From a virus: DNA of 46,060 nucleotides. Below the pieces are notes generated by a model. That model was not told the origin of the DNA. It made no database searches and saw nothing but the letters and a program-made list of their open reading frames with translations. Shown one piece after another: positions 147-46,060 of this stretch (position 1 is its first letter; every line of letters starts with the position of its first letter). The position numbers and the translations under genes are program-made. The DNA lies in UHGV virus genome UHGV-1373565. The stretch is one strand, 5' to 3'.

Positions 147-187
147 AGCCCTCTTGAGTGTAGTAGCTCAGGAGGGCTTTATTTTGT
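147..187 (+). terminator. Hairpin (agccctcttgag / ctcaggagggct, loop tgtagtag) followed by ttattttg; candidate rho-independent terminator.
   Basis: 11/12-bp inverted repeat followed by a T-rich tract. Confidence 0.45.
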
Positions 188-202
188 CTAGTACACTAGA
201 CT
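186..202. repeat. Palindrome A (gtctagtacactagact), one member of a dispersed CTAGTAC palindrome family.
   Basis: Near-perfect 16-18 bp palindrome; recurs at 3019-3040, 7544-7561, 35113-35138, 39366-39382 and 45848-45865. Confidence 0.6.
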
Positions 203-208
203 GGAGAC

Positions 209-228
209 TTAGGCACTCCAATAGATAA
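209..228 (+). promoter_or_regulatory. Degenerate phage-RNAP promoter-like sequence (ttaggcactccaatagataa).
   Basis: Matches the window's 23-bp promoter consensus except for 2-3 mismatches. Confidence 0.3.
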
Positions 229-400: not shown

Positions 401-543
401 TGAGGTACGTTATTAAGCAGCAACCTGATGGTCTTTGGTATGTAAAGGATGAGTATCGTAATAAGGTACTAGTATGTGATGCAAGCAGGGAATACTGTGA
501 AGGCTTCTTAGCAGGTGTTGCAGCTGTTGGAGGTGATTGCTAA
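400..543 (+). CDS. Hypothetical protein (47 aa).
   Basis: TAATG overlap with the upstream ORF and with the primase start, consistent with translational coupling. Confidence 0.3.
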   Translation: MRYVIKQQPDGLWYVKDEYRNKVLVCDASREYCEGFLAGVAAVGGDC

Positions 544-2555
544 TGGCTATTGTTATGAACCTACCTTGCCCTGCCTGCCAGAAGAATGGCGCAGACAAGA
601 ATGGTAAGTACCTTATGGTGTTTGAGGATGGCGGTAAGCTCTGCATACATACTCACAACCACGATAACCGTGAGCGCTACTATGAGCCACCAGATGGCAA
701 AGACCCTGTGTTTGACCGTGAGATTGATGGCAAGGTTCAGTATTCTCCTGAGCAATTCCGCAAGCTGGAATCAGATGGCAAGCTGAGTGATTCTTTTACC
801 CGTCATCTTGCTATGTCAGGCATGAGGATGAAAGACCGCTATGAGATTCTCACTGATGATGAGCGCACAGCTCTGGAGAATGAGTGGCGCATGGACATGG
901 AGTGGTTTGAAGGGCTTTCCTTTAAGTCACTAGCTGACCGTGGCATACATGGGCTAATCGCCAAGCTTTATAATGTGCGAGTAGGTCATGATGAATCTGG
1001 TAAAGTTGTCCGTCACTACTACCCAACTTATGACAGCCAGCTAAACCTGATTGGCGCTAAGTGTCGAACGTTGCCTAAGGAATTTATGTTCGGGCATCTT
1101 GGTCGTCGCTTTGGTGACACTGCACTGTTTGGTATCCACACCCAGCAAGCTGTACTTGATAGCGGTACTTTCAAGAAAGGTAAGATGGGTAAGCTGCTGG
1201 TAGTTGGCGGTGAGTGTGATGCTATGGCAGCTCAGCAGATGCTGGTTAAGAGTCTCAATAAGCTTGAGCAGTTCAATGGCCTGAAGTCACTTGATGGTCT
1301 GCGCCTAGCTCATGTGTGGTCGCCAACTAAAGGGGAGACAGCGCTAGAGGAGATTGTAGCTAACCGTGAATACCTCAATCAGTTTGAGGAGATTGTATGG
1401 GGCTTTGATAACGACGATGTAGGCAACAAGCTTAACCTAGACTGCTCCCGCTTGTTCAGGCAGAAGTCTAAGTTCTTTAACTACCCAGCTGGATGCAAGG
1501 ATGCTAATGATTGCTTGCTTAAAGGCAGGGAGAAGGAATTCATGGATTCGTGGTGGCAACCAGCAGAGGCTAGAGTTAAGGGCAAGCTGAGGGAAGCTGG
1601 TCACTACGCTAAGCGAGCTAAGCAAGCTGTAGAGATGGGCTTGTCATACTTCTGTGAAGCTCTCAACATGATTACCTTTGGTATTCGCCTGCGTTACTTG
1701 TCTGTGTGGGGTGCTGGTACTGGTGTAGGTAAGACAGAGATTACTACTCAGCATATCACCAGCCTAATCAAGCAAGGTAAGCCAGTGGTAGCTATCTACC
1801 TTGAGAACAGTCCAGAAGAAGTCCTCAAGATGGTGGCAAGCCAGATGGCTAACAAGGACTTTATGAGTCCACCGCTAGGTGAGGGTGATGAGTACGATGC
1901 ATCTAGGGATTACACTCAAGAGGAATTAGACGCTACAATCGATGAACTAGTAGCAACTGGCTTGCTTATCATACCAGACCTTGAAGGTAGTAAGGACGTC
2001 AACGTAATCATGGAAGTCCTAGAAGATGCATTAGCATTAGGCTACCAGTATTATGTTATCGACAACCTGACAGCCTTTGAGCACTACGTAGACGGTAAGG
2101 TTCAGGTTGGTGTCGCTGCTATTGATGAGACAATGAAGCGCATTGGTACATTTAAGGATGAGCATGACGTCAACATTATGCTGCTCACTCACTTAAGTAG
2201 ACCAGAGAAAGGCCGTGACCCCCACGAGCTTGGTGGTGAAGTCTATATCACTGACTTACGTGGTGCAGGCTCTATCAGCTTTTGGGCTAATGGTGTATGG
2301 GGCATCGAGCGTAACACTCAGGCTGAGGCTATTAGCGACAAGTGTACTACACTGCTGCGTAACCTTAAGTCTCGTGGCGTTGGTCACAAGGTTGGCTCAA
2401 CAGTTGTGCTCCGCAAGGACATTACTACTGGTGAGTTTGAGTACCTTGAAGGTGTTCATGAGCTGCCGCAGGTTGGCAGGAAGAAGAAGGAGAGTAAGCG
2501 CGATGCGCAAGCTCAACGGTTTATTGAAGATGCAGAAACTGACGGAGAGTTCTGA
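543..2555 (+). CDS. DNA primase/helicase (T7 gp4-like).
   Basis: N-terminal Cys4 zinc-binding element (CPACQ...CIHTHNH); Walker A GAGTGVGKT of a DnaB-family helicase; acidic C-terminus ending in Phe (DGEF). Confidence 0.9.
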   Translation: MAIVMNLPCPACQKNGADKNGKYLMVFEDGGKLCIHTHNHDNRERYYEPPDGKDPVFDREIDGKVQYSPEQFRKLESDGKLSDSFTRHLAMSGMRMKDRYEILTDDERTALENEWRMDMEWFEGLSFKSLADRGIHGLIAKLYNVRVGHDESGKVVRHYYPTYDSQLNLIGAKCRTLPKEFMFGHLGRRFGDTALFGIHTQQAVLDSGTFKKGKMGKLLVVGGECDAMAAQQMLVKSLNKLEQFNGLKSLDGLRLAHVWSPTKGETALEEIVANREYLNQFEEIVWGFDNDDVGNKLNLDCSRLFRQKSKFFNYPAGCKDANDCLLKGREKEFMDSWWQPAEARVKGKLREAGHYAKRAKQAVEMGLSYFCEALNMITFGIRLRYLSVWGAGTGVGKTEITTQHITSLIKQGKPVVAIYLENSPEEVLKMVASQMANKDFMSPPLGEGDEYDASRDYTQEELDATIDELVATGLLIIPDLEGSKDVNVIMEVLEDALALGYQYYVIDNLTAFEHYVDGKVQVGVAAIDETMKRIGTFKDEHDVNIMLLTHLSRPEKGRDPHELGGEVYITDLRGAGSISFWANGVWGIERNTQAEAISDKCTTLLRNLKSRGVGHKVGSTVVLRKDITTGEFEYLEGVHELPQVGRKKKESKRDAQAQRFIEDAETDGEF

Positions 2556-2805: not shown

Positions 2806-3002
2806 TGAAACCAGCAATTCTTACTAATGCTAACGTTGGCCTCAAGATGTCTGACCTTGAGGCTCGTGCTCGTGCTGGCGACCCTTGGGCGCAGGCTCAG
2901 CTGACTAAGCAAGCTATGGGCTTTGCTAATGCCATGCAAGCTGATGTCCGTGAGGGAGCTGACATGCAAGACCGCAAGGACTTGCTGCTTATCAATCGCT
3001 AA
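2805..3002 (+). CDS. Hypothetical protein (65 aa).
   Basis: TAATG coupling with the preceding gene. Confidence 0.45.
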   Translation: MKPAILTNANVGLKMSDLEARARAGDPWAQAQLTKQAMGFANAMQADVREGADMQDRKDLLLINR

Positions 3003-3018
3003 GCCACTTCGGTGGCTT

Positions 3019-3040
3019 TAGTATAGTGTACTAGACTGGA
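3019..3040. repeat. CTAGTAC-family palindrome variant (gtgtactagactggagtcta); overlaps the RBS of the next gene.
   Basis: Inverted repeat tagact-gg-agtcta; shares ctagactggag with the 186-210 copy. Confidence 0.5.
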
Positions 3041-3047
3041 GTCTATC

Positions 3048-3320
3048 ATGGTTAAAACTACAAGCTGGCAGGCTTACCAAGAAATCCTGCGTGGTGGTGT
3101 AGCTGTTAAGCAAGCTGAGAAGGTCTTGCAAACTATCAACTACTATCCATCTGGTGTAAGCAGGGCAACCATTGCTCGTGCTATGGGTATGCCTATTAAT
3201 GCTGTCTGTGGTCGTGTCAACGAGCTGCTGAAAGCTGAGGTAATTTATGTGTCAGGTACTGGTAAGTGCCCAGTAACTGGTAGGACTGTTGAGATGCTAA
3301 AGGTGGTTGAGTATGACTAA
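3048..3320 (+). CDS. Small winged-helix/HTH DNA-binding protein (90 aa).
   Basis: Segment SRATIARAMGMPINAVCGRVNELLKAEVI resembles the recognition helix-turn-helix of ArsR/MarR-type wHTH proteins; ggag RBS. Confidence 0.5.
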   Translation: MVKTTSWQAYQEILRGGVAVKQAEKVLQTINYYPSGVSRATIARAMGMPINAVCGRVNELLKAEVIYVSGTGKCPVTGRTVEMLKVVEYD

Positions 3321-3516: not shown

Positions 3517-5360
3517 ATGGAACACTTTCCGTCAATGTTTGCCAATAAAGCTGACCGCCCCTCTGGTAAGGGGCGCTTTCTTGTTGGTGACTTAGAGGGT
3601 GTGGGGCTTGTCAGGGCTATTCGTAAGCCGTCTGACATTCACGTCATCACCCTGCAAGATTACTTTAGTGGTGACTACTGGATTTTCTTCGACCCTATTG
3701 AGAAGCGAATCAACCCTAGTGAGCTGCAAATGGAAGGGGAGCAGGATGGCTACATTGAGGATGGTGTTCGTATGCTCATGGAGTCAGAGGCTTTCTGCTT
3801 CCAGAACGGCGTAGGCTTTGACTTGCATGTGTTTGAGAAATGCTTCCCGTGGTTCAAGTATAACTATTGTGAGTCACGAGCAGCTCGCCCACATGCTGAC
3901 ATCTTCCCGTTTAAGTTTATGGATACCATGCTGGTTAGCCAGCTGACCTATCCAGACCGCCCACTGCCACCACAAGCTTACGCCATTGGCGCAGGTAATA
4001 CGGGTCCACATAGTATTGCAGCTCATGGTATCCGCATGGGTCGCTATAAGCCTGACCATGAGGACTGGTCTACTCTTACTGATGCAATGATTCACCGTAA
4101 CGTGGAAGACGTTGCTATCGGTACTGATATGCTTAAGTGGCTCATGGAGGGTGATTGGGCTGAGCAGAAAGCTCGTGGTCTGAACAAGACTACTGGCTGT
4201 GGTATTGATACAGCTTATCAGATGGAGCAGCAAGTAGCGCTCATGATTAGCCGTCAGGAGCAGCGAGGCTTCCGCTTCGATATGGCACAGGCCTACAAAG
4301 ACTTCTGTACCATTGACAAGGAGATGGAAGACACAGCAGCTGCTGTTGACCCACTCATACCGCTCAGGCTGGTCACTAAGCCTTACAAGTTTGCTGACCT
4401 TAAGTCAAGGTATGATGCAGCTGTCAAGGCTGGGTTCACTGAGGCAGAGCTTAAGCCTATCTTCAATGGCATCAATCAGACCATGAAAGCTATGGGTGAT
4501 GAAGCTCGCATGGGTGACAAGGCTACTATGTGGTCTTTGACAACCAAGAACGGTGACTACAGCAAGCGTTTGCAAGGTTACTTCCCTGAGATGCGTGGCA
4601 ACATAAATGACACGCATGACCCTCTTGTAGCTGGTGCATTCACTCCAATTAGCTTTGAGCATATTGGCTTGGGTAATCTTGACTACATTAAAGAGAAGGT
4701 GCTGTATCCACTTGGCTGGCGTGGTGTTAACTTGTCGGACTCTGAGCAAGAGTGGTATGACGAGCATGGAACAACACGTTATCCGTGGTCTGGTAAGATT
4801 GATGACGACTCGCTTGAGCTATGGAAGAAGAAACAGGAAGTACCAGAGTGGGCGCAGCAGGTTGTTAACTACTACATCCTACGCTCGCGCCGCTCAGTTA
4901 TCCTGAACCGTGGCGACCTTGACCACTTCCTTGAGAAAGGTCAGTGGCCTAAGCAGAAGAATGGGCGTCATGAGTGCCGTGGCTTGCTGGCAGTAGCTTA
5001 CTGCAAAGAGCATGACATGATGGCTATGGAATACTTTGCTAAGTTCCGTGAGTGGCCTACATCTGAGGATGAGGACTGGCGTGTACCAGCAGCAGCTTTC
5101 AGCATAGGAACCAATACCTTCCGTATGCGTCATCGCTTTGTGGTTAACATACCTGCTCGTGGGTTGTGGCCTCTGCGCCACCTGTTCATTGCATCTAAGG
5201 GTAAACTTATCTTAGGCTGTGATGGGGCTGGCCTTGAGCTGCGTATGCTTAGTCACTTCATGAATGACCCTGAGTATCAGGACATCATTCTCACTGGTGA
5301 CATCCATACACATAACCAGCTTAAGGCAGGCTTGCCTACTCGTGATATGGCTAAGACGTT
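3517..5360 (+). CDS. DNA polymerase (family A, T7 gp5-like), exon 1. Ends inside motif B (...LPTRDMAKTF).
   Basis: Motif A DGAGLELR; DIHTHNQ; motif B begins RDMAKTF as in T7 RDNAKTF. The frame then diverges and stops 10 codons later. Confidence 0.85.
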
Positions 5361-6034
5361 TAACACAATGGGCGTCTATAAACTCCTCTAATTCGGTGAA
5401 CATCTCCAAGAGACAATACCGAGCTAAGCAGGTGGTCATAGCAACTCAATAGGAGGTGCTTATGATTATGTCAAACTGTAATAAGACTAAGGCAGAGCAA
5501 ACTGCCGACCCTGGTAAATATCCACAAGGCTACTTTAAACCAAAGCCTTGTAAGTGTTGTAAGAAAGTATTCACGCCTAAGGCTCCATCAGAGCTGTATT
5601 GCTCTGATACCTGTAAAGATAAGGGTATAATGAATGCTTACTTGCAACGCAATTATGGTATCACCTTCCGCCAATACCGCCTCATGCTTGAAGACCAGAA
5701 AGGTTTATGCAAGATTTGTGGTAGTGAAGGTTTCATAATGAATAAGGATAGACACAAGATGAAGCTTGTAGTAGATCACTGCCACTCCACTGGTAAGGTC
5801 AGAGGCTTACTGTGTCATAACTGCAATAGGGCATTAGGTTTATTCCAAGATAGCCAAGATTCACTACTCAAAGCTATTGACTACCTGAAAGTGTAACGAC
5901 TAGCCGAAAGGCGTAGGGCTAAGCAGCCCGAAACGGGGAGGCTCGCAAGAGCAAGAGATAGTCTGCTCTGCATGGTGACATGCAGCAGTTCTATAAGAAC
6001 GGCCTAGGTCTAGCGAGCCTAGGTGAACATAAGG
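5361..6034 (+). mobile_element. Group I intron (about 674 nt) interrupting DNAP motif B and carrying an HNH homing-endonuclease ORF.
   Basis: The 5' exon ends in U (acgtt|) and the intron ends in G (aagg|), as group I splicing requires. Joining 5360 to 6035 restores KTF-IYAFLYGSG, matching T7 KTFIYGFLYGAG. The 3' part holds GNRA-capped hairpins (gcc-gaaa-ggc; ctgcatg-gtga-catgcag). Such introns are reported in T7-like DNAP genes. Confidence 0.6.
5462..5896 (+). CDS. Intron-encoded HNH endonuclease (Endonuclease VII / HNH family).
   Basis: CKICG...VVDHCHSTGKVRGLLCHNCNRALG motif; aggagg RBS 5 nt upstream of the ATG. Confidence 0.8.
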   Translation: MIMSNCNKTKAEQTADPGKYPQGYFKPKPCKCCKKVFTPKAPSELYCSDTCKDKGIMNAYLQRNYGITFRQYRLMLEDQKGLCKICGSEGFIMNKDRHKMKLVVDHCHSTGKVRGLLCHNCNRALGLFQDSQDSLLKAIDYLKV

Positions 6035-6731
6035 TATATACGCATTTTTATATGGCTCTGGCATTGATGGGCTAGCTCGCTTGGCTGGCATTAGCTTTAG
6101 TGAGATGGAACAGTGTATTGCTCGCTTCAAAGCTGAGCTACCTGCACTTGCTAAGCTCATTGAGCGTGTGGAAACTGCTGGTCGCAAGTTCGGATACCTA
6201 CAAGCTATTGATGGTCGCTGGGGCCGTATTCGCCGTAAGAATGGCAAGCCACTGTTGCACACTGCACTTAACGTATTGCTTCAGATGACTGGCTCTCTGG
6301 TTATGAAGTATGGTGAGTGCATCGCTGAGACTCAGATGATTGAGGAAGGGGTTGCATTAGATGATAAAGGCTATCCAGCTTTCGTGGCTAACGTACACGA
6401 TGAAGTACAGATGGAAGTCCCTGAAGATGAAGTTGATGTTATGGACTACACGTTGCCATATACACTTGATGGATTCGAGAATGAGAAGAAAGCTATCAAA
6501 GCGGTCTTTGATGTTGAGGAGAAGCGAGCACACACTGATGACAGTGGGCGTAAGTGGTCAGCAGCTATCAAGGTTTCTGCTGCTGATGGTACTATCCATT
6601 GTCGCAGGTACTATCATCGAGCTGGTAACATCCTTATGGATGCTTTCGAAGCTGCTGGTGTTAAGTTCAACATGAGATGCCCACTTGCTGGTGAATATAA
6701 GATAGGCCGTAACTGGCACGATACTCACTAG
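6035..6731 (+). CDS. DNA polymerase exon 2 (motif B remainder IYAFLYGSG through motif C VHDEVQ to C-terminal His).
   Basis: In-frame reading upstream of the track ORF 6081-6731 gives GIYAFLYGSGIDG...; HTALNVLLQMTGSL and VANVHDEVQMEV match T7 gp5 C-terminal motifs. Confidence 0.8.
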
Positions 6732-6779: not shown

Positions 6780-7544
6780 ATGTCTTTAGAAGGTTTTGAT
6801 TTTGGCGCAGAGCTAGCAGAAGCGTCAGGTGTCAAACGAGTAAACCCTGAAGTTGGCTTGCACTTTGCTCGCTTGCGTAGTGTGATTCACTTAGGCTCAA
6901 TTGCTGCTATGTATCGTGGCAAGCCAAAGCCACCAGTTAACAAGGCTGCTTTCATCTTCGAACTTAAGGGCGACCTTGATGAGGTTGATGACCTGCACCC
7001 TGACAATGGTGAACCGCTGAGCATCGGCATCGGTGTAAACCTGACCAAAGGTGACAACGCCAAGCTAACAGAAGTTATGGCAGCTCTCATCTCTAAGAAG
7101 GAGATGGAGGAAGGTACTGTCAAAGGTATGGATGACCTGATTGGTCGTGTATGCCAGCTTGACCTGAAGGGTAGTGATGCCAAGGGTGATGACGGTAAGC
7201 CTAAGTACGTTGACATCAAATCACTCAGCCCTGTGGCTAAGGCATTCGCCGCACAGATTCCTGAGCTGTCAGTATCCGGTGTAGGCCACTGCCGACTGTC
7301 TCAGCTGACTATGGCTGCGATGGATGAGCTGAACGTATTCCTTGACGTCCAAGAGGGCATCATGAAATCCGAGGAGTGGAAAGCAGGAACGCACCCAGCA
7401 ATCGCTCTGGTGGAGGAAATCCGCAAGGAGCGTCCGAACTATGCCAAGGCTGAGAAGAAGGCTGACAAAGTCGCTGACGAGCCACAGGGCGAGCAGGAGC
7501 CGTCTAAGCCAGTTGAGCAGATGAACACCGATGAGGAGTTCTGA
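6780..7544 (+). CDS. Putative ssDNA-binding protein (gp2.5-like), 254 aa.
   Basis: Position in the replication module; acidic C-terminal tail ending DEEF, as in T7 gp2.5; own promoter and optimal codons. Assignment is by analogy, not by a recognised fold. Confidence 0.45.
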   Translation: MSLEGFDFGAELAEASGVKRVNPEVGLHFARLRSVIHLGSIAAMYRGKPKPPVNKAAFIFELKGDLDEVDDLHPDNGEPLSIGIGVNLTKGDNAKLTEVMAALISKKEMEEGTVKGMDDLIGRVCQLDLKGSDAKGDDGKPKYVDIKSLSPVAKAFAAQIPELSVSGVGHCRLSQLTMAAMDELNVFLDVQEGIMKSEEWKAGTHPAIALVEEIRKERPNYAKAEKKADKVADEPQGEQEPSKPVEQMNTDEEF

Positions 7545-7565
7545 GTCTAGTACACTAGACTGAAG

Positions 7566-7587
7566 CCGTACTAGTTAGCTAGTACGG
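7566..7587 (+). terminator. Hairpin B (ccgtactag-ttag-ctagtacgg), 9-bp perfect stem, immediately after palindrome A at 7544-7561. Candidate terminator or RNase III site.
   Basis: Perfect inverted repeat; the same element recurs at 38932-38956, 45801-45822 and 45871-45892. Confidence 0.5.
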
Positions 7588-7609
7588 TATTAGGCACTAC
7601 AATAGGAAT
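7588..7609 (+). promoter_or_regulatory. Phage RNAP promoter (tattaggcactacaataggaata).
   Basis: Consensus match. Confidence 0.75.
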
Positions 7610-7689
7610 AGCTGAGTAGACTCAATTGGTAGAGCGGTACACCAGAAATGGCAGTATCAGTTGCTGGTTCAAGTCCAGCCTCAGCGACC
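7610..7689 (+). tRNA. tRNA-like element with canonical D-loop and T-arm; the anticodon arm cannot be resolved.
   Basis: AGCTCA-like D-arm (ACTCAATTGGTAGAGC); perfect T-arm GCTGG-TTCAAGT-CCAGC; 6/7 acceptor pairs (GCTGAG/CTCAGC) then ACC. The 27 nt between the D- and T-arms do not fold into a standard 5-bp/7-nt anticodon stem-loop. Confidence 0.4.
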
Positions 7690-7712
7690 TATTAAGCACT
7701 ACAATAGATATA
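7690..7712 (+). promoter_or_regulatory. Phage RNAP promoter (attaagcactacaatagatatag).
   Basis: Consensus match. Confidence 0.75.
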
Positions 7713-31158: not shown

Positions 31159-31181
31159 TATTAGGCACTACAATAGGAGAA
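31159..31181 (+). promoter_or_regulatory. Phage RNAP promoter (tattaggcactacaataggagaagc) upstream of the tailspike gene.
   Basis: Perfect consensus; its leader contains 1.5 copies of the AGTAAGCTAT unit. Confidence 0.8.
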
Positions 31182-31291
31182 GCTATAAGAAGAACAGTAA
31201 GTATACAGTAGCTATAGTAAGCTATTGTTAGCCCTAGTAGCTACTGTACTTCTTCCTTATTATTTCTTATATCTTATTATAGAGGAGCTAT

Positions 31292-35112: not shown

Positions 35113-35148
35113 GGTCAGTCTAGTACGCTAGACTGGCCTCTTTCTATT
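35113..35148 (+). terminator. Rho-independent terminator (ggtcagtctag-tacg-ctagactggcc + tctttctatt) built on a palindrome-A core.
   Basis: 10/11-bp stem and T-tract ending at the ATG of the next gene. Confidence 0.65.
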
Positions 35149-38429: not shown

Positions 38430-39234
38430 CCAATTGGCAGCTTGCTAGGTAGTTAGAGTAAGCTGCTGTTAACTGGAGTAAGCTATGAGAATTAATGCAC
38501 ACAGTCTTTCATATCTACATCGTAAGTATAAGAGAGGGTATGTAGAAGGTTAAGTAAGCTAGCTAGGTAGCCATTAGTGGTTACTGTAAGCTGGCCTTGA
38601 AACTAAAATTAGGTTGGGCAGCTACAGCAGTTCCCGCCGCCGCCAGCTTCAGCTTTCCCCCCATCGGGGTGGCTGACTGGCACCTCTTAGGCCGCAGGCA
38701 GTTAGAGGGGGGGGTGGGTAGGCTGGCTCAGGCTGGCTAGGTAGCTGGCATCAGCTTGCATCAGTTAGCGTAAGTCATTGATGTTGCACTCGCTTGCTAG
38801 TACATGAGATCACTCTACGTGAAATCTGGCTAGCTTGCGTGGGCTATCAAGCTGCTAATTCAAGCTGGTGCATCAGCTGTACTCGTGTGCTAGTGCGCTG
38901 ACAGTGGCTGATTGGCAAGCTGCTAGGTGGCTTGTACTAGTCAGCTAGTACGTTGTGTGCTGCTGGGTGTATCTGTCTTTAGTCTTATGGGTTAACCAAC
39001 CACAGCTTGCAGTAACTCACTAGCAGCTTATTGGGTAGCTCATAGGTAGCTTACAAGGCTCAAAGCTTGCTGGTACTACTGATGGCTTACTAGGTAGCTT
39101 ACTATCACTGACTAGGTAGCTACTGTTAGTTCACTAGGTAGCTAGCTATGGCTGACTAGGTAGTTACTAGGTGGATTGATGTAAGCTTACTCAAGCTCTC
39201 TTAGTGCATCATTCGATGCACAATATAAGAAGAA

Positions 39235-39258
39235 TAAGACACTACAATAAGAATAGAG
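39235..39258 (+). promoter_or_regulatory. Weak phage-promoter-like site (taagacactacaataagaatagag), preceded by hairpin gtgcatc-attc-gatgcac.
   Basis: Core ACTACAATA conserved; flanks divergent. Confidence 0.4.
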
Positions 39259-39288
39259 TACGCCTTGCCAATAGCTCTCATCAGCTAC

Positions 39289-39318
39289 TTGCAACAGCCT
39301 ACTCAGCCTACGTATAAC
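39289..39318 (+). promoter_or_regulatory. Sigma70-type promoter (TTGCAA-N18-TATAAC).
   Basis: -35 and -10 hexamers with 18-bp spacing, upstream of the early genes. Confidence 0.5.
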
Positions 39319-39418
39319 CACTAGGTAGCTGCTTGTAGCTATGGTCGGCTGACTAGGTAGCTTTAGTCAGTCTAGTGCACTAGATTAAGCTAATGTGAGC
39401 TACATCACTAAAATGGTG

Positions 39419-39447
39419 TTGACTAGGTAGCTCACTGTAGGTATAGT
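39419..39447 (+). promoter_or_regulatory. Strong sigma70-type promoter (TTGACT-N17-TATAGT); its -35 is provided by an ACTAGGTAGCT repeat unit.
   Basis: Near-consensus hexamers with 17-bp spacing; about 370-nt untranslated leader before the first early ORF. Confidence 0.6.
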
Positions 39448-39817
39448 TACTTACATCAAGACGAAGCAGCGATGCAAAGTAGCTTGATGAGCAGTAAGCT
39501 TACAGAACGCTAATCAGCTCAAGTATGTAAGAGTAGTTAAGTGTAAGGACTCCGCTAGATGAAACAGGCTAGGGTCGATTGAGCAAGGGTCGCTAAATCC
39601 TTCTCCATACATTACGATGATATGGCTACACTGTGAACTACATCGCTCTTTAACAATATGGATAGGAAGTTGAATAGAGCTGATGAAAGCTCTTGTGACC
39701 GCTCAAGCGGTGCTAATTAACCTAAGAAGCTCAGCTAGTGCTAGACACACCAGAAAGGTGCTGAGCAGCTTATTAAGGTGAGCTTGATAGACTAACCACA
39801 ACCAATAGGTAGCTATC

Positions 39818-39991
39818 ATGGAGAGAGAAGTAATTGAGGGTACATTAGTACAATACAAAGATAACTATGGTTATCGTGTTTGGGGTAAGGTTACTCAGCA
39901 TTACACATCAGCTATGGGCTATGAGTGTGTAGAGCTTACTAATGGCGCTAGATTAAAAGTCTCTGATATACTTAAAGTTAAGTATCCATAA
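39818..39991 (+). CDS. First early ORF (57 aa), unknown function.
   Basis: ORF downstream of the host-type promoters; weak RBS. Confidence 0.35.
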   Translation: MEREVIEGTLVQYKDNYGYRVWGKVTQHYTSAMGYECVELTNGARLKVSDILKVKYP

Positions 39992-40375
39992 CAAGGCTAG
40001 CCAGCAGCTTGCTGGCAGTCTATCAAGCTTGCTTTCAACTGGAGATAGTATTATGAAACTGATTGGTAAAGGTGCATTTACTAAAGCTTACTTGCTTGAT
40101 AGCGGTAGGGTATAGATATTGGATTTGAGATAAGCCCACGTAACATCTAGGTTGTTACTGGTGGATACCTGATACTAGCTGATTGCTTCTTTCATCACCC
40201 TGCACTGACTAAAGTCAGAAGCAAGAAGTAGCAAACTAGCAGCCATTAGCTAATAGTGGCTGCAATGATTGTTGCTAACTAACTGGAGAAGTTAACATGT
40301 GGTTACTTTATCTTAATGTAGGCTTAGTTGTTACACTAGGTACTATCGGTTATCGCTTATTCTGAGGGCTAACTA

Positions 40376-40564
40376 ATGACTTATTTATTTATAGCCGCTT
40401 GCGGTTGGCTGACATTTATCTACAAAGTTCGCCGTGACTTTCTGAGGGCACATAAGCGCTACCTCATTACGAAGAAGGGCGACATCTGGACTGTGCGAGA
40501 CAAGCGAGGTCGCTTTGTAACACTCACTGATAACTACTGGGACATCTGCAAACTAGGGGCTTGA
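40376..40564 (+). CDS. Early hypothetical protein (62 aa) with N-terminal hydrophobic segment.
   Basis: gaggg RBS; ORF track. Confidence 0.45.
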   Translation: MTYLFIAACGWLTFIYKVRRDFLRAHKRYLITKKGDIWTVRDKRGRFVTLTDNYWDICKLGA

Positions 40565-40565
40565 T

Positions 40566-40775
40566 ATGAACTACGATGAGATTATCAAAGAGTGTGAGCG
40601 GGTTATGGAGAGGGCTAATGAGATTACCAGTGTTAACGTAGAGCTTAGCTTAGCCCTCTGGGAGAATGCTTACAATCGCTACGTAGCAGCACTCAGGGCT
40701 ATGAGGCAAGCTAAGCGTATTCACTACACCAACTGCGGCTCTGTAGACCTGAGGATAGAAACATGTCTCAACTAA
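40566..40775 (+). CDS. Early hypothetical protein (69 aa).
   Basis: ORF track; ATGA-type coupling with the previous gene. Confidence 0.4.
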   Translation: MNYDEIIKECERVMERANEITSVNVELSLALWENAYNRYVAALRAMRQAKRIHYTNCGSVDLRIETCLN

Positions 40776-40898
40776 CCTACTTGAGCCAGATTGCAGCAGC
40801 AGAAAGTAAACTGGCTATAGCTAACTTCTTAGGTGATAAGAAGATGAGAGGTGAAGCTATTCAGGCCATCCATAAAGCTAAACTGGAGTATAGGAATT

Positions 40899-41069
40899 AT
40901 GTCAAAAGATAGTAAGTCGGATGAGGCTATATATGCCAGCACTAAGCCCAACTGGACAGATGAGGAATGGCGGGAATTTAACAGACTCTCTAGGGAAATG
41001 GAGCGAGAGTTATCTAAAGCTGCTAGTGCTGGCTTGTTCCTGACAGCAGCAGACTTGCGTGAGGAGTGA
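40899..41069 (+). CDS. Early hypothetical acidic protein (56 aa from the ATG; track ORF 40851-41069).
   Basis: ggag RBS upstream of the ATG at 40899; a 49-aa ORF at 40763-40912 overlaps it. Confidence 0.3.
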   Translation: MSKDSKSDEAIYASTKPNWTDEEWREFNRLSREMERELSKAASAGLFLTAADLREE

Positions 41070-41139: not shown

Positions 41140-42186
41140 ATGCAAAACATCATTGATTCTATCAAAGCTATATTAGTTGAAATGGCTGATGATAAGAGCG
41201 AGACAACCGTTAAGGCTGCTTATGCTCAAGTTGTGGAATTAGGTGTTGATGTTAGCGAGATAGTAACTAAAACTCGCGCTAGCTTTATTCAGACGCTGGA
41301 TAGCTTGCGGGTGCGCTTGCAAGATGACCTGTTAGCACAAGCTGAGGCTAGCGCACTTACAGAGCTTGAATGCCTTGAAAGTGAGATTAAGGCAACTATA
41401 GCTGACGCTGGCAAGGCTACATTCCATTTAGGGGAGTTGCTGCTGAAAGCTAAAGATGCTCACGAAAGCACACCTGATTTCCTTAAGTGGGTTGATGAGA
41501 AATTCGGCATCAAGAAGGCGTGGGCTTATCGCTTGATGAAAGTGGCTAGCGTATTCCAAGAGGATGTATGGAAAGCAACTGCTGTTGAGGTGCTGTATAC
41601 CCTGCAATCCCAAGCCACTGACAGCCAGCTTGAGCAGGCCAGAGAGCTGGCTGAGGCTGGCAAGCTGAACCGCAAGACCCTCTCTGAGCTGCTGGAGCCT
41701 GTAGCGCCACCAGTTAAGCAAGTTGATCAGCCAGAGCCACAGAGCAGCCAGAAGCTACTGCAACAAGCTGCTGATAGCCTTATTGCAAGCGCTGCTGAGC
41801 CACAGGAGGCCGCTCCACAGCTGCCAGAGTCTAGCGCACTAGACAGCAAGCCACAGGAGGATAAAGAGGATTTGATGGAGCTTGTAAGAGAATTACGTGA
41901 GCAGCTGGCGCTACAGCAGCAGCAGAATGCGGAGCTTATGAAACAAATCGCAGAGGCTAACAAGCCACGTATAGCAGCCAGTAACGCGCCTATGCTGCCA
42001 CAGTTCACAAGCGCTTGCATGTATGCCCGCTTAGGGCTGGCTGCTGAGGATGCGGCAGATAAGGCTAAGATTCTGGAAGCATTCAAGAGCTTATGTAAAG
42101 CTGGCTACGGTCGCCAGCATGAGGCGTACAGCTTGCTTGATGAGGCTCGCCATAAGCTCATTCACGCTATGGAGGCCGCAGCATGA
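41140..42186 (+). CDS. Large early protein (348 aa), A/Q/E-rich and helical, at the T7 gp0.7 position. No protein-kinase motifs recognised.
   Basis: gagga RBS. Positional analogy to gp0.7, but no GxGxxG / HRD / DFG motifs. Confidence 0.6.
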   Translation: MQNIIDSIKAILVEMADDKSETTVKAAYAQVVELGVDVSEIVTKTRASFIQTLDSLRVRLQDDLLAQAEASALTELECLESEIKATIADAGKATFHLGELLLKAKDAHESTPDFLKWVDEKFGIKKAWAYRLMKVASVFQEDVWKATAVEVLYTLQSQATDSQLEQARELAEAGKLNRKTLSELLEPVAPPVKQVDQPEPQSSQKLLQQAADSLIASAAEPQEAAPQLPESSALDSKPQEDKEDLMELVRELREQLALQQQQNAELMKQIAEANKPRIAASNAPMLPQFTSACMYARLGLAAEDAADKAKILEAFKSLCKAGYGRQHEAYSLLDEARHKLIHAMEAAA

Positions 42187-42410: not shown

Positions 42411-45044
42411 ATGTACACTAGCGATGAGCTTTACCAGAAACAACTTGAGCTAGAAGGGGAAATGCACGGCTATGGTGTTACTCGCTTTGACCGTAACAAC
42501 CAACGTGCAATTGATAGCGGTACACCTTCAGACACTGATTGGAACCGCCGTTTACTTTCTAACTTCATTGAGCCTATGGTGAAGGGTATCAATGCTTATA
42601 AGGAGTATTACAAGACTAAAGCTGGACGGCCTACGGTGGCTTTAAAGTACATTCGTCAGGTGCAGCCAGAGCAAGCAGCTTACATTGCCATTAAGAATAT
42701 CCTTGATGTGCTGGGGAGTACCACATTTGATGCTAACTGGCTTGTTACCACTATTGGGCGTCGTATAGAGGATCAAGTGAGATTCACTAAGCTTGAGGAG
42801 GCTGCCCCTAAGTATGTTGGCAAGGTTAAGGATAGCTTAGCTAAGCGTAATTCACTACAGTATGCACACCAGCATAAAGTGCTGGTAGCTACTGAGAAGA
42901 AACTAGCTGAGAATCCAGAACGTGCGCAGCTTGAGTTACCACGCTGGCAAGAATGGGCGGAGGAGGATTGCAAGCACGTTGGTAGCTTGCTGGTCAATAT
43001 CTTTGAGCAGTGCATTTTGTTTGAAGGTGAGCCAGTAATCCGTAAGGAGGTGCAGACAGTTCGCAAAGGTACATTGGTTTTCATCAAGCCCACTGAGAAA
43101 GTTACCAAGTGGATTCATGAGTTCAGAGAGGCTATTGGTGGGCTTGCTCCGGCTTATGCACCTTGCGTAGTTCCTCCACTTGATTGGACTTCCCCATTTA
43201 CTGGCGGGTTCCATACGGAAGCTGTTAGCAGCACTCTGCATCTTGCTAAGGTTCGCAATAAGCGCCACTTGCGTAAGCTGACTAAAGAGCAGATGCCAGC
43301 AGTTTATAAGGCTGTAAACAATTTGCAGAAAGTACGCTGGCGTATCTCTGAGCGTGTGCTTGCAACTGCTAACACGCTTGTAGAGCTGGGCTTGCCTTAT
43401 GCGCTCCCTTCTAAGGATGAAAGTGATTGGAAAGAGAAGAATCCATGCCCTGTGCCTGAGTATCTGCAAGACCTGCGAGGCGAGCAGCTAAAAGCGGCGC
43501 TTACTGCCAGTCAGTGGGAAGCGTTTCAGGAGTGGAAACAGTTGGCACGTCAGAACTACGACGAGGAGAGTGAGCGCGTAGCAAGCTTTAGGGAAGTTGT
43601 ACGTACCTTAGGGCAAGCTAACCGCTACGTTGGATTTGATGCAATCTACTTTGTGTACACGCTGGACTTTCGCGGACGTGTCTACTGCCAGAGTAGCCTT
43701 GTAAGCCCACAGGGTGGCGACTTGCAGAAAGCTCTCATCAAGTTTGCTGATGGAATGAAGCTGGGCGAGCGTGGTGAATACTGGTTTAAGGTGCATGGTG
43801 CTAACGAGTGGGGGTGGGATAAAAAGGAGTTTGACGAGCGCGTAGCCCTTGTAAGTGAGCCTGAATTCTGCGAGATGTGCCTAGACATTGCAAGTGACCC
43901 TGTGACCTTCAATGACTGGATTAAAGCTGATAAGCCGTGGCAGTTCCTCAACTGGTGCTTTGAGTATGCTGACTTTCTGAAGCATGTGCAATCAGGTGGC
44001 AACCCACAGGACTTTGTAAGCTACATCCCGTGTGCGATGGATGGTTCTTGCTCTGGTATTCAACATTATAGTGCCATGCTGCGTGATACAGTTGGTGGTG
44101 CTGCTGTTAACTTGGTTAACTCTGACAAGCCTAATGACATCTACGGGGAAGTCTGCAAGGTTGCTATTAAGGAGCTGCAAGCAATTGCTGATGGCTCACA
44201 GGTCTATGATGGCAAGATTGACCCTGTACTAGCTCAGCAGCTGGCGCAGGAGTGGCTGCGTCTGCAACCAAATCGCAGCCTAACTAAGAAGCCTGTTATG
44301 ACCCTGCCTTACGGCAGCACTCAGTTAACTTGCCGTGAGCATGTTAGCCAGTGGCTGAAAGATTTGCAGAAGGAGGAGAATAAGCGAGCTAAGGCAGAGT
44401 TTAGGGAGCCTATGAAGGTACACGCTTTTGGTGATGCTGATAGTGCAATGCCGCTAAAGTTTGCTGAGTCACTTATGACTAGCATTGTGTGGCACTCTAT
44501 CGGTAAGGTTGTAGTAGCTGCGAGGGCTGGTATGGCTTACATCAAAGCCGTCACAAGCTCAGTGGCTAAGATGAATATGCCGCTTGAGTGGACTACTCCA
44601 ACAGGCTTTATTGTCCGTCAGGAGATTTACCAGTTCACAACACGTCAGGTAAACACTCAGCTGCTGGGTGGTACTAAGTTTGTAGTCAGCACTAAGAGTA
44701 AGGATATTGATTATCATCGCATGATTAACTCTTGCGCACCTAACTTTGTTCACTCAATGGATGCGAGCCACCTTACACTGGCAACTAACTACTTTGCAGA
44801 TGCAGGTATTAGCAGCATTGCAGTAATCCATGATAGCTTTGGCACACATGCAGGAGCTACTGACCTGCTGCGTGAGCGTCTGCGAGCTTCAATGGTGGAT
44901 ATGTACGAACAGCATGATGTTATCACTAACTTCCTTGCTGAAACTGAGGGCAGACTTATGACAGCTTTTGAGCACATTCGTGTGCCAGAGCGTGGTGAGC
45001 TGCAACTTGATAGCATTAATCAAAGTACGTATGCTTTTGCTTAA
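42411..45044 (+). CDS. Single-subunit DNA-dependent RNA polymerase (T7 gp1-like), 877 aa.
   Basis: Length; conserved segments such as ...PCVVPP..., ...YGSTQ..., IHDSFGTHA (motif C) and the C-terminal ...AFA; nine cognate promoters are present in the window. Confidence 0.95.
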   Translation: MYTSDELYQKQLELEGEMHGYGVTRFDRNNQRAIDSGTPSDTDWNRRLLSNFIEPMVKGINAYKEYYKTKAGRPTVALKYIRQVQPEQAAYIAIKNILDVLGSTTFDANWLVTTIGRRIEDQVRFTKLEEAAPKYVGKVKDSLAKRNSLQYAHQHKVLVATEKKLAENPERAQLELPRWQEWAEEDCKHVGSLLVNIFEQCILFEGEPVIRKEVQTVRKGTLVFIKPTEKVTKWIHEFREAIGGLAPAYAPCVVPPLDWTSPFTGGFHTEAVSSTLHLAKVRNKRHLRKLTKEQMPAVYKAVNNLQKVRWRISERVLATANTLVELGLPYALPSKDESDWKEKNPCPVPEYLQDLRGEQLKAALTASQWEAFQEWKQLARQNYDEESERVASFREVVRTLGQANRYVGFDAIYFVYTLDFRGRVYCQSSLVSPQGGDLQKALIKFADGMKLGERGEYWFKVHGANEWGWDKKEFDERVALVSEPEFCEMCLDIASDPVTFNDWIKADKPWQFLNWCFEYADFLKHVQSGGNPQDFVSYIPCAMDGSCSGIQHYSAMLRDTVGGAAVNLVNSDKPNDIYGEVCKVAIKELQAIADGSQVYDGKIDPVLAQQLAQEWLRLQPNRSLTKKPVMTLPYGSTQLTCREHVSQWLKDLQKEENKRAKAEFREPMKVHAFGDADSAMPLKFAESLMTSIVWHSIGKVVVAARAGMAYIKAVTSSVAKMNMPLEWTTPTGFIVRQEIYQFTTRQVNTQLLGGTKFVVSTKSKDIDYHRMINSCAPNFVHSMDASHLTLATNYFADAGISSIAVIHDSFGTHAGATDLLRERLRASMVDMYEQHDVITNFLAETEGRLMTAFEHIRVPERGELQLDSINQSTYAFA

Positions 45045-45053
45045 GGAGACACT

Positions 45054-45533
45054 ATGGAGCAGGTAGAAAATTATGAAGGGTATTATGTTGATAAGAGTGG
45101 CTGCGTATATAGCCAATGGAAGGGTAATGGTAGGCGAGGTGGCAGGTCTTTAGGGATGTCCCTTAAGAAACTGAAACAGCAGATTCAGAATGGGTATAAG
45201 TATGTAACCTTAGTTAATGATAAGGGAAGAAGGACAATACCTGTTCATAGGATAGTGGCAACTGCCTACCTGCCATTAGAGGCTGGAAAGGGAGAAGTGA
45301 ACCATAAGGATAAGGATAGACTTAACAACCATTGTGATAATTTAGAATGGTGTGATAGGCAATATAATGTGGAACACTCACAGGCACTAACTTATGAGTT
45401 CACATCTCCAGAGGGAGTTAAGGTTACAGTGTTCAACCTCAATAAATTTTGTAAGGCTAATAGCTTAAATACTGGATGTATGTGTGAGGTTCACAGTGGT
45501 AAACGAAATCAACATAAGGGTTGGAAGAAATGA
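45054..45533 (+). CDS. Free-standing HNH endonuclease (HNH_3 family), paralogous to the 8165 gene.
   Basis: EVNHKDKDRLNNHCDNLEW motif; AT-rich composition; aggag RBS. Confidence 0.8.
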   Translation: MEQVENYEGYYVDKSGCVYSQWKGNGRRGGRSLGMSLKKLKQQIQNGYKYVTLVNDKGRRTIPVHRIVATAYLPLEAGKGEVNHKDKDRLNNHCDNLEWCDRQYNVEHSQALTYEFTSPEGVKVTVFNLNKFCKANSLNTGCMCEVHSGKRNQHKGWKK

Positions 45534-45786: not shown

Positions 45787-45800
45787 CTGGCTTGTACTAG

Positions 45801-45892
45801 TTATCTAGTACAAATTTACTTGATAATAATTATCATTAACTCAGTCTAGTATACTAGACTAGACCGAGTCGTACTAGTTGGCTAGTACAACA
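45801..45892. repeat. Cluster of three CTAGTAC elements. Hairpin B (45801-45822, ttgtactag-ttat-ctagtacaa); perfect 18-bp palindrome A (45848-45865, agtctagtatactagact); hairpin B (45871-45892).
   Basis: Direct reading; same composite A+B arrangement as at 7544-7587. Confidence 0.65.
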
Positions 45893-45961
45893 GGCGTTCC
45901 TACGTGAAATCTGAGAAAGTTTGCGGGCAATTGTCCGTCAGAATTTAAAATTTTCTGAAAA

Positions 45962-45984
45962 TAATTAGGCGCTACAATAGGGAG
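45962..45984 (+). promoter_or_regulatory. Phage RNAP promoter (taattaggcgctacaatagggag) reading directly into the 10-mer tandem array.
   Basis: Consensus match; T7-like GGGAG initiation region. Confidence 0.75.
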
Positions 45985-45987
45985 CCC

Positions 45988-46060
45988 AGTAAGCTATAAT
46001 AGTAAGCTATAGTAAGCTATAGTAAGCTATAGTAAGCTATAGTAAGCTATAGTAAGCTAT
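45988..46060. repeat. Tandem AGTAAGCTAT array (7 copies, with a 3-nt aat insertion after the first), reaching the window edge.
   Basis: Direct reading; identical unit to 1-90. Confidence 0.95.

Follow-up and report, generated by a model that had tools for sequence, protein, structure and literature searches.

Palindromes matching the tryptophan repressor operator, and a second, lineage-variable palindrome family, at transcription-unit boundaries of an SP6-like Klebsiella phage

Two palindrome families at the transcription-unit boundaries

The 46,060-nucleotide viral genome UHGV-1373565 (the window, meaning this whole stretch of DNA) carries two separate families of short palindromes, elements A and B, at its transcription-unit boundaries. 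We propose that B is the consensus operator of the host tryptophan repressor TrpR and that A is the operator of a phage-encoded dimeric DNA-binding protein, the two sets being unrelated, and we give this reading a probability of about one half. The window is the whole, circularly permuted genome (~46 kb) of a virulent SP6-like podovirus of the genus Gajwadongvirus, a Klebsiella phage, with all genes on the + strand. Its nearest relatives are the Klebsiella phages RCIP0053, vB_Kp_Z1 and Roth32, to which the first 8 kb are ~97% identical; ECBP5 and PP99 come next.

When the window was searched for A as AGTCTAG-N4-CTAGACT, with up to three mismatches, seven sites were recovered (14 strand-matches against 0.14 expected), and a search for B as GTACTAG-N4-CTAGTAC gave six matches against 0.29 expected, four of them exact and two degenerate. 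Non-coding DNA, which makes up 8.6% of the window, holds 12 of the 13 sites (binomial p = 2e-12). A first-pass annotation, made from the letters of the window, had described repeated palindromes in at least ten intergenic copies; both the repetition, far above chance, and the intergenic placement are borne out. Its coordinates overlap the true elements but were in part displaced by 3-7 bases (45848 for 45843, 45801 for 45794, and 39366 for 39369).

The same annotation had united A and B in one family through a shared CTAGTAC heptamer, and this did not hold up. The heptamer is only weakly enriched (17 occurrences against 9.1 expected, a count reached by 2 of 100 shuffles), and it is present in A only where the free central tetramer starts with TAC (the TACA or TACG centres at 185, 7544 and 35117). 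The core that the two elements truly have in common is CTAG-N4-CTAG (11 against 2.0 expected). We regard A and B as two families because they have opposite scores on a TrpR matrix, where all A copies lie at -10 to -1 bits, and because they have evolved differently, B being invariant across lineages whereas A has been replaced at the same slots.

Both elements occupy the same positions in seven other Gajwadongvirus genomes, giving 58 A and 38 B copies in the eight genomes together. Across these copies the arms carry 1.7-1.9 bits of information per position, the central four bases 0.9-1.2 and the flanks ~0.4. Arms that depart from the consensus are always altered on one side only, with zero compensatory changes in the 96 copies. 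Most sites lie downstream of terminators and upstream of promoters, in the usual order terminator, A-type element, B (optional) and promoter. The first-pass annotation had left the choice between RNase III-type processing sites and operators for a sequence-specific protein. We favour protein operators and reject RNase III sites because the arms are conserved as sequence, compensatory changes are absent and the stems are short; the free centre and the terminator-to-promoter placement likewise support operators.

Element B has the sequence of the trp operator

Both arms of B are identical to those of the idealised Escherichia coli trp operator. Like the operators of the E. coli trp regulon (trpEDCBA, aroH, trpR and mtr), B is an 18-bp GTACTAG-N4-CTAGTAC dyad, whose outer bases are GTACT...AGTAC and whose CTAG half-site cores are separated by 4 bp; its central tetramer is usually TNNG, not TTAA. 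Of 5426 E. coli genomes, 5421 have the trp operator upstream of trpL, and E. coli genomes also supplied the aroH (GTACTAGAGAACTAGTGC), trpR (GTACTCTTTAGCGAGTAC) and mtr (GTACTCGTGTACTGGTAC) operators. The RegulonDB-derived TrpR consensus is GTACTAGTTAACTAGT (PMC2811016), and CGAACTAGTTAACTAGTACGCA is the trp operator employed as a TrpR roadblock (PMC11748629).

A matrix was derived from the four natural operators only (trp, aroH, trpR and mtr). On it the six B sites scored 19.8-26.0 bits and the next best site in the window 9.4. The natural operators themselves scored 22.4-25.9 bits, with the trp operator at 25.9, so that B equals or exceeds them; two B sites outscore the trp operator itself. 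In simulated sequences the score of the weakest natural operator was reached 0.003 times per genome.

The exact B copies are located at 7568-7585 (GTACTAGTTAGCTAGTAC; 26.0 bits), adjoining a phage promoter; at 38934-38951 (21.7 bits), on the inner edge of the inferred direct terminal repeat; at 45794-45811 (GTACTAGTTATCTAGTAC; 25.9 bits), directly past the terminator that follows the RNA polymerase gene block; and at 45871-45888 (GTACTAGTTGGCTAGTAC; 21.8 bits). The degenerate copies, at 38879-38896 (GTACTCGTGTGCTAGTGC; 20.4 bits) and 38786-38803 (GCACTCGCTTGCTAGTAC; 19.8 bits), vary in the manner of natural operators: the former resembles the E. coli mtr operator, and a copy in Edwardsiella phage WAG25P1 shares the 11-mer GCGAGTACAAC with the trpR operator. 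By its sequence, then, B is an operator for host TrpR, and we infer that TrpR would bind it. A phage-encoded TrpR homologue was considered and rejected: in a tblastn search of the window with TrpR of E. coli the best E-value was 0.37, and Pfam scans of 20 small open reading frames (ORFs) found no Trp_repressor domain.

Thirteen genomes, representing at least five lineages, have between five and seven TrpR-like sites each; they comprise the Gajwadongviruses, WAG25P1, Klebsiella phage KL01, Reminis, Pantoea phage Nufs112 and Erwinia phage VL73. In these genomes B always occupies three slots, namely the terminal repeat or left end, the intergenic region past the RNA polymerase block, and the region after the SSB-like gene; the upstream copy of the second slot, at 45794 in the window, is absent from ECBP5, MR4 and JSF38. 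Aeromonas phage Tola, Erwinia phage phiEa1H and SP6 have zero TrpR-like sites. B as a general phage motif was rejected, since exact B was found in 78 stretches among 2.9 million viral contigs, roughly the chance level, and contigs with multiple copies were rare (PP99 and two metagenomic contigs).

The promoter that B adjoins belongs to the phage. The motif TTAGGCACTACAATAGGAA, present in nine copies against 0.02 expected, on the + strand only and ahead of gene blocks, is the SP6-type promoter of the phage RNA polymerase, whose gene lies at 42411-45044 (+); ten such promoters were predicted by the authors of the PP99 genome paper. A and B are symmetric and lie upstream of this promoter, and neither fits its consensus. 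At the promoter at 7590-7608 (+), B ends 4 nucleotides (nt) upstream and covers positions -37 to -20. After the SSB-like gene, the distance from the end of B to the promoter TAG is exactly 19 nt in seven lineages, and this spacing holds though the upstream half of the promoter (-17 to -5) differs among them.

B sites in the terminal repeat and beside a Fur-like box

The physical left end of the genome is the long non-coding stretch 38430-40376. From homology with the 410-bp terminal repeat of Nufs112, which was defined experimentally and is annotated, we place the terminal repeat of the window at ~38620 to ~38960, followed by TATCTGTCTTTAGTC (38966-38980). This last motif comes after the last B box and resembles the T7 concatemer-junction class II pause signal (ATCTGTT). 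In Nufs112 and Tola the motif lies on the inner border of the terminal repeat. In the permuted assembly TATCTGTCTTTAGTC probably marks the boundary of the repeat. The Nufs112 counterpart of the 38934 B site lies at the end of its annotated repeat.

Past the RNA polymerase block, a perfect 7-1-7 palindrome, TGATAATAATTATCA (45821-45835), lies between the B copy at 45794 and the A copy at 45843. It has the perfect 7-1-7 core of the Fur box (AATGATAATNATTATCATT; PMC3528687) but differs from known Fur boxes in its setting, an intergenic region of a phage, between B and A and with no iron-uptake promoter. The Fur-like box is found at the same slot in Roth32, PP99, RCIP0053, Z1, WAG25P1, KL01, Nufs112, Reminis, VL73 and the metagenomic contigs L098 and L099, and is missing from Tola, phiEa1H and SP6; its distribution thus tracks that of B, most B-bearing genomes having it at this slot. 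The reading of B as a site for a host factor is strengthened because two consensus host-repressor operators, B and the Fur box, lie within 60 bp.

The B/Fur-like/A/B cluster is followed by a phage promoter at 45965-45983 (+) and then by about 15 tandem copies of AGTAAGCTAT (45999-46060 and 1-87), which bridge the start/end junction of the window. Similar 10-bp repeats occur at the same place in WAG25P1, Nufs112 and Tola and not in phiEa1H, a phage without the winged-helix gene described below. They could be iterons or a leader element. The motif CTACGTGAAATCTG occurs at 38815-38828 and 45900-45913 (0.01 expected), each time exactly 11 nt past a B box (those at 38786 and 45871), and Nufs112, KL01, VL73 and L099 carry the B-N11-CTACGTGAAATCTG module too, in their terminal repeat and post-polymerase region.

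Such arrangements raise the alternative that two clusters, the B/Fur-like/A/B group with its AT-rich DNA, promoter and 10-bp repeats and the B boxes of the terminal repeat, are parts of replication origins and packaging signals, with A and B serving as assembly sites for initiation or end processing and not as transcriptional operators, an idea that overlaps our own. With its AT-rich stretches, a promoter and ~15 AGTAAGCTAT units, all past the RNA polymerase gene, the first of these regions resembles the layout of the T7 primary origin. Further agreement comes from the duplication of the B-N11-CTACGTGAAATCTG module between terminal repeat and post-polymerase region and from the B copy at the inner edge of the repeat, beside a TATCTGT motif like that of the T7 concatemer junction. 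However, A and B also occur where origin-like features are absent (3020, 35117 and 7544/7568), and no mapped origin was found for any SP6-like phage. We consider this explanation unlikely.

Element A is replaced between lineages

One A copy of the window, at 185-202 (TGTCTAGTACACTAGACT), follows a terminator hairpin (153-184) and ends 6 nt upstream of the phage promoter at 209-227 (+). The perfect copy at 7544-7561 begins at the stop codon of the 254-amino-acid SSB-like gene, with B 6 nt further on; in Roth32 this A copy is decaying, with two uncompensated changes, while the neighbouring B is still perfect. At 35117-35134 the flanks lengthen the stem to 11 bp (-18.3 kcal/mol), and a T-rich run comes next. 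The copy at 39369-39386 (AGTCTAGTGCACTAGATT) belongs to the non-coding left end, where a sigma70-like promoter (39419-39447) follows 33 nt downstream, and the perfect 18-mer AGTCTAGTATACTAGACT at 45843-45860 sits between the Fur-like box and the second B. A variant copy, AGTATAGTGTACTAGACT (3020-3037), follows a terminator (3001-3019) and precedes the ribosome-binding site of the winged-helix gene, and A-type copies stand at the equivalent slot in KL01, Reminis, VL73 and Nufs112.

The remaining match, at 41828-41845, has three mismatches and falls within the ORF 41140-42186, a 348-amino-acid gene just upstream of the RNA polymerase gene; its membership of the A family is doubtful. This A-like palindrome is kept in all Gajwadongvirus genomes, for which coding constraint and site function are both possible reasons.

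Outside the genus, other palindromes occupy the A slots: AGTATAG-N4-CTATACT in WAG25P1; TGTCTCYTATARGAGACA in KL01, Reminis, Tola, L098 and L099; TTGTCCACTGTAGGAGACAA in Nufs112; TGTCTCACACGTGAGACA in phiEa1H; and GTCCAAC-N2-GTTGGAC in SP6. Most of these A-types retain a GTCT-N8-AGAC frame, from which WAG25P1, Nufs112 and SP6 deviate at one or two positions each. A is the genus-specific version of an older TGTC...GACA palindrome family located at the same slots of SP6-like phages. That A varies between lineages whereas B is fixed would be expected if a co-evolving phage protein reads A and a conserved host protein reads B. In the metagenomic contig L100 (SRR28229728; positions 6593, 6884 and 15321) both AGTATAG and AGTCTAG forms are present, and position 4 of the half-site therefore tolerates either base within one phage. 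A comparison of A with known host-factor motifs gave nothing convincing; TGTCTCTTATA is part of the Tn5 mosaic end, which we judged a coincidence. We infer that A is read as DNA rather than RNA.

The winged-helix protein probably binds neither element

The first-pass annotation had pointed to the product of the gene at 3048-3320 (+), directly after the variant A copy, as a candidate binder. This 90-amino-acid protein has a confidently predicted MarR/ArsR-like winged-helix structure (predicted local distance difference test score, pLDDT, 84) and no Pfam domain; a fold search returned only generic MarR/ArsR-like matches. It belongs to an orphan family with 38 members in 5.8 billion proteins, whose phage records (20) are confined to this clade. 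The window and KL01 proteins are 93% identical, compared with about 50-75% for most genes, which suggests gene exchange between the lineages or unusually strong constraint.

As a binder of A the protein was rejected initially because the window and KL01 share one recognition helix but have different A-types. The idea was revived by the common GTCT-N8-AGAC frame and the A-type copy before the gene in five lineages, and rejected again because A-type palindromes occur in phiEa1H and SP6, both without the gene. Autoregulation through the adjacent A copy is likewise disfavoured, as site and protein do not always occur together and the helix does not track the site. As a binder of B the protein is weakened by Tola, which has the gene (64% identical) and no TrpR-like box. 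The winged-helix protein thus probably binds neither family, and the 10-bp AGTAAGCTAT repeats are a candidate alternative target.

A phage-encoded protein sharing the specificity of TrpR, for instance this winged-helix protein, might nevertheless occupy B in place of host TrpR. B is confined to phages with the winged-helix gene, the recognition helix (INxVCGRVNELL) is nearly invariant, as is B, and the predicted fold is of a DNA-binding type; such a protein would also account for B in phages labelled as infecting Pseudomonas and Ralstonia. This possibility appears quite improbable, because besides the Tola case, the exact match to the host operator and the natural-like degenerate variants would have to be a coincidence. 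A rough estimate puts at ~1% the chance that a 7-nt half-site matches one of ~200 known host motifs. The Fur box beside B, moreover, points to host factors.

RNA hairpins and functionless palindromes

A similarly small chance is given to the view that A and/or B work at the RNA level, as hairpins of read-through transcripts, whether as terminators, 3'-end stabilisers, processing sites or translational operators masking ribosome-binding sites. RNA folding showed that every copy folds as predicted, into stems of 7-10 bp (~-7 kcal/mol each). Two copies are terminator-like, A at 35117 with its 11-bp stem and T-rich tail and B at 45794, which was caught by a terminator scan; the others follow stronger terminators. 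In KL01, Nufs112 and Tola the right arm GGAGACA forms a Shine-Dalgarno sequence 5-8 nt ahead of an ATG, and at 3020 an overlapping palindrome, TAGACTGGAGTCTA, spans the ribosome-binding site.

Against these features stand the absence of any compensatory substitution noted above and the location of most copies past strong terminators and before the next start site, in the least transcribed DNA. In addition, an asymmetric TGTCTCC...AGAGACA form is used in both orientations at matching slots, producing C-A mismatches in one of them, and the conserved asymmetric Nufs112 form carries two non-wobble mismatches. No Rfam family matched the window.

The T7 RNase III sites (R0.3, R1.1 and others) are comparable in that they, too, recur in the intergenic DNA of a T7-supergroup phage, between its transcription units. 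They are irregular hairpins of ~20 bp or more with internal loops, inside transcripts. A and B differ in their short stems, which at 7 bp and ~-7 kcal/mol are too short for RNase III, in being conserved as sequence rather than structure, and in their mostly terminator-to-promoter location; no two-turn irregular duplex was found. The only ~20-bp duplex arises through pairing between the B copies at 45794 and 45871 (45790-45892), and it is missing in ECBP5, MR4 and JSF38.

That the elements are functionless short palindromes, kept by concerted evolution or as module recombination junctions, is very improbable: modular exchange is hinted at by the winged-helix gene after an A-type copy (93% identical between window and KL01 against ~60% for most genes), and one A copy is decaying in Roth32, but slot-by-slot conservation across lineages with just 45-65% protein identity, the sharp drop in information at the arm edges and the fixed promoter distance all contradict it.

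Proposed role of host TrpR and comparison with known systems

T7- and SP6-type phages are usually seen as self-contained, their transcription needing only the phage polymerase and its promoters. Enterobacterales encode TrpR. In our proposal, tryptophan-loaded TrpR dimers would occupy the B sites during infection, three in the terminal repeat, two around the AT-rich Fur-box stretch past the RNA polymerase gene and one at -37 to -20 of a promoter. Bound TrpR could then tune, in step with the supply of tryptophan, how readily the phage RNA polymerase or the replication machinery gains access or, alternatively, act as a roadblock or architectural protein; the consequence of binding and the direction of any regulation are conjectural. 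A, with its GTCT-N8-AGAC core, would most likely be read by a dimeric phage-encoded DNA-binding protein other than the adjacent winged-helix protein. The broader claim that this clade has wired host TrpR and Fur operators into single-subunit RNA polymerase promoters, the terminal repeat and a likely origin is tentative, and we hold it to be possible but rather doubtful.

Several observations weigh against the proposal. A perfect operator is no proof of a selected function, and a protein at -37 to -20 may leave a T7-type polymerase unhindered. Natural trp operators overlap a sigma70 promoter, whereas a scan of the window found no sigma70-like promoter overlapping any B. The hosts of SP6 and phiEa1H have TrpR, yet these phages lack B, which is therefore no general requirement. 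Among the B-bearing genomes, MR4 is labelled a Pseudomonas phage and Reminis a Ralstonia phage, the host fields of the records being empty; TrpR is not expected in such hosts. For A, no binder was identified here, and its palindromy is equally required by an RNA hairpin. The copy at 35117 could double as a terminator, and in lineages of the TGTCTC type the right arm doubles as a Shine-Dalgarno sequence.

Unlike E. coli TrpR operators, which lie at sigma70 promoters of tryptophan genes, B belongs to a virulent phage, where it precedes promoters of a single-subunit polymerase and also occurs in a putative origin and the terminal repeat. The closest natural parallel is offered by the lytic cyanophages S-PM2d and P-SSM2, in which host PhoB boxes in phage promoters place genes under a host nutrient regulator (PMC10976474). 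There too a lytic phage bears sites for a host transcription factor of nutrient status, but the promoters are served by host RNA polymerase, the factor is an activator and its binding was shown by electrophoretic mobility shift assay; our case involves phage-polymerase promoters and the putative binding of a repressor, together with a Fur box. The engineered T7lac promoter likewise combines the operator of a dimeric host repressor with a single-subunit polymerase promoter at a set distance. In T7lac the lac operator is placed past the start site, where it blocks initiation or escape, whereas B lies upstream, would be a natural arrangement and has an uncertain effect.

Neither element was described in full-text searches or in the genome papers of ECBP5/KBNP1315, PP99, Nufs112 and Tola, which give predicted promoters and terminators at most, or neither; the SP6 and K1-5 papers lay outside this scope. 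Literature searches found no precedent for TrpR, or for host regulators at single-subunit polymerase promoters. If correct, the proposal would mean that these lytic phages sense or manipulate the physiology of the host by way of its own transcription factors. On the broader claim, infection would be gated by the amino-acid and iron status of the host or, alternatively, TrpR would be titrated by the replicating phage DNA, which would relieve the repression of host tryptophan supply. The A-type palindromes would represent a second, clade-wide operator for a phage regulator yet to be found. The B-promoter arrangement would be a natural counterpart of the T7lac design and a source of natural parts for repressor-controlled T7-type promoters, and in Klebsiella phage therapy growth conditions could alter phage performance.

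Other features of the genome

The left-end non-coding region also contains nine copies of ACTAGGTAGCT (38736-39814), which include an array with a 22-bp period (39089-39169); the best sigma70-like promoter (39419-39447) has one of the copies overlapping its -35 region. The terminal repeat of Tola (L094, 560-640) has repeated GTACAGT units, including TACTGTATGGGCGTACAGT, which fits the LexA box CTGT-N8-ACAG, right before TATCTGTTTG. A weaker repeat array, AGTAGCTAT (31194-31247), follows a promoter at 31161.

A sequence resembling a tRNA, in which the acceptor, D and T arms are clear (7612-7690), begins 5 nt past the start site of the 7590 promoter; it is annotated as tRNA-Ser in Roth32 and vB_Kp_Z1, went uncalled by ARAGORN and Rfam, and is absent from PP99. 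The primase/helicase gene lies at 537-2555 (+). The DNA polymerase gene is apparently split (3517-5391 and 6081-6731) by an ORF at 5456-5896 that relatives annotate as a homing endonuclease. Directly after the RNA polymerase gene is an HNH endonuclease gene (45054-45533; Pfam HNH_3) not found in PP99. An early 49-amino-acid ORF (40763-40912) matches the lambda Kil family of host cell-division inhibitors (Pfam E = 1e-8).

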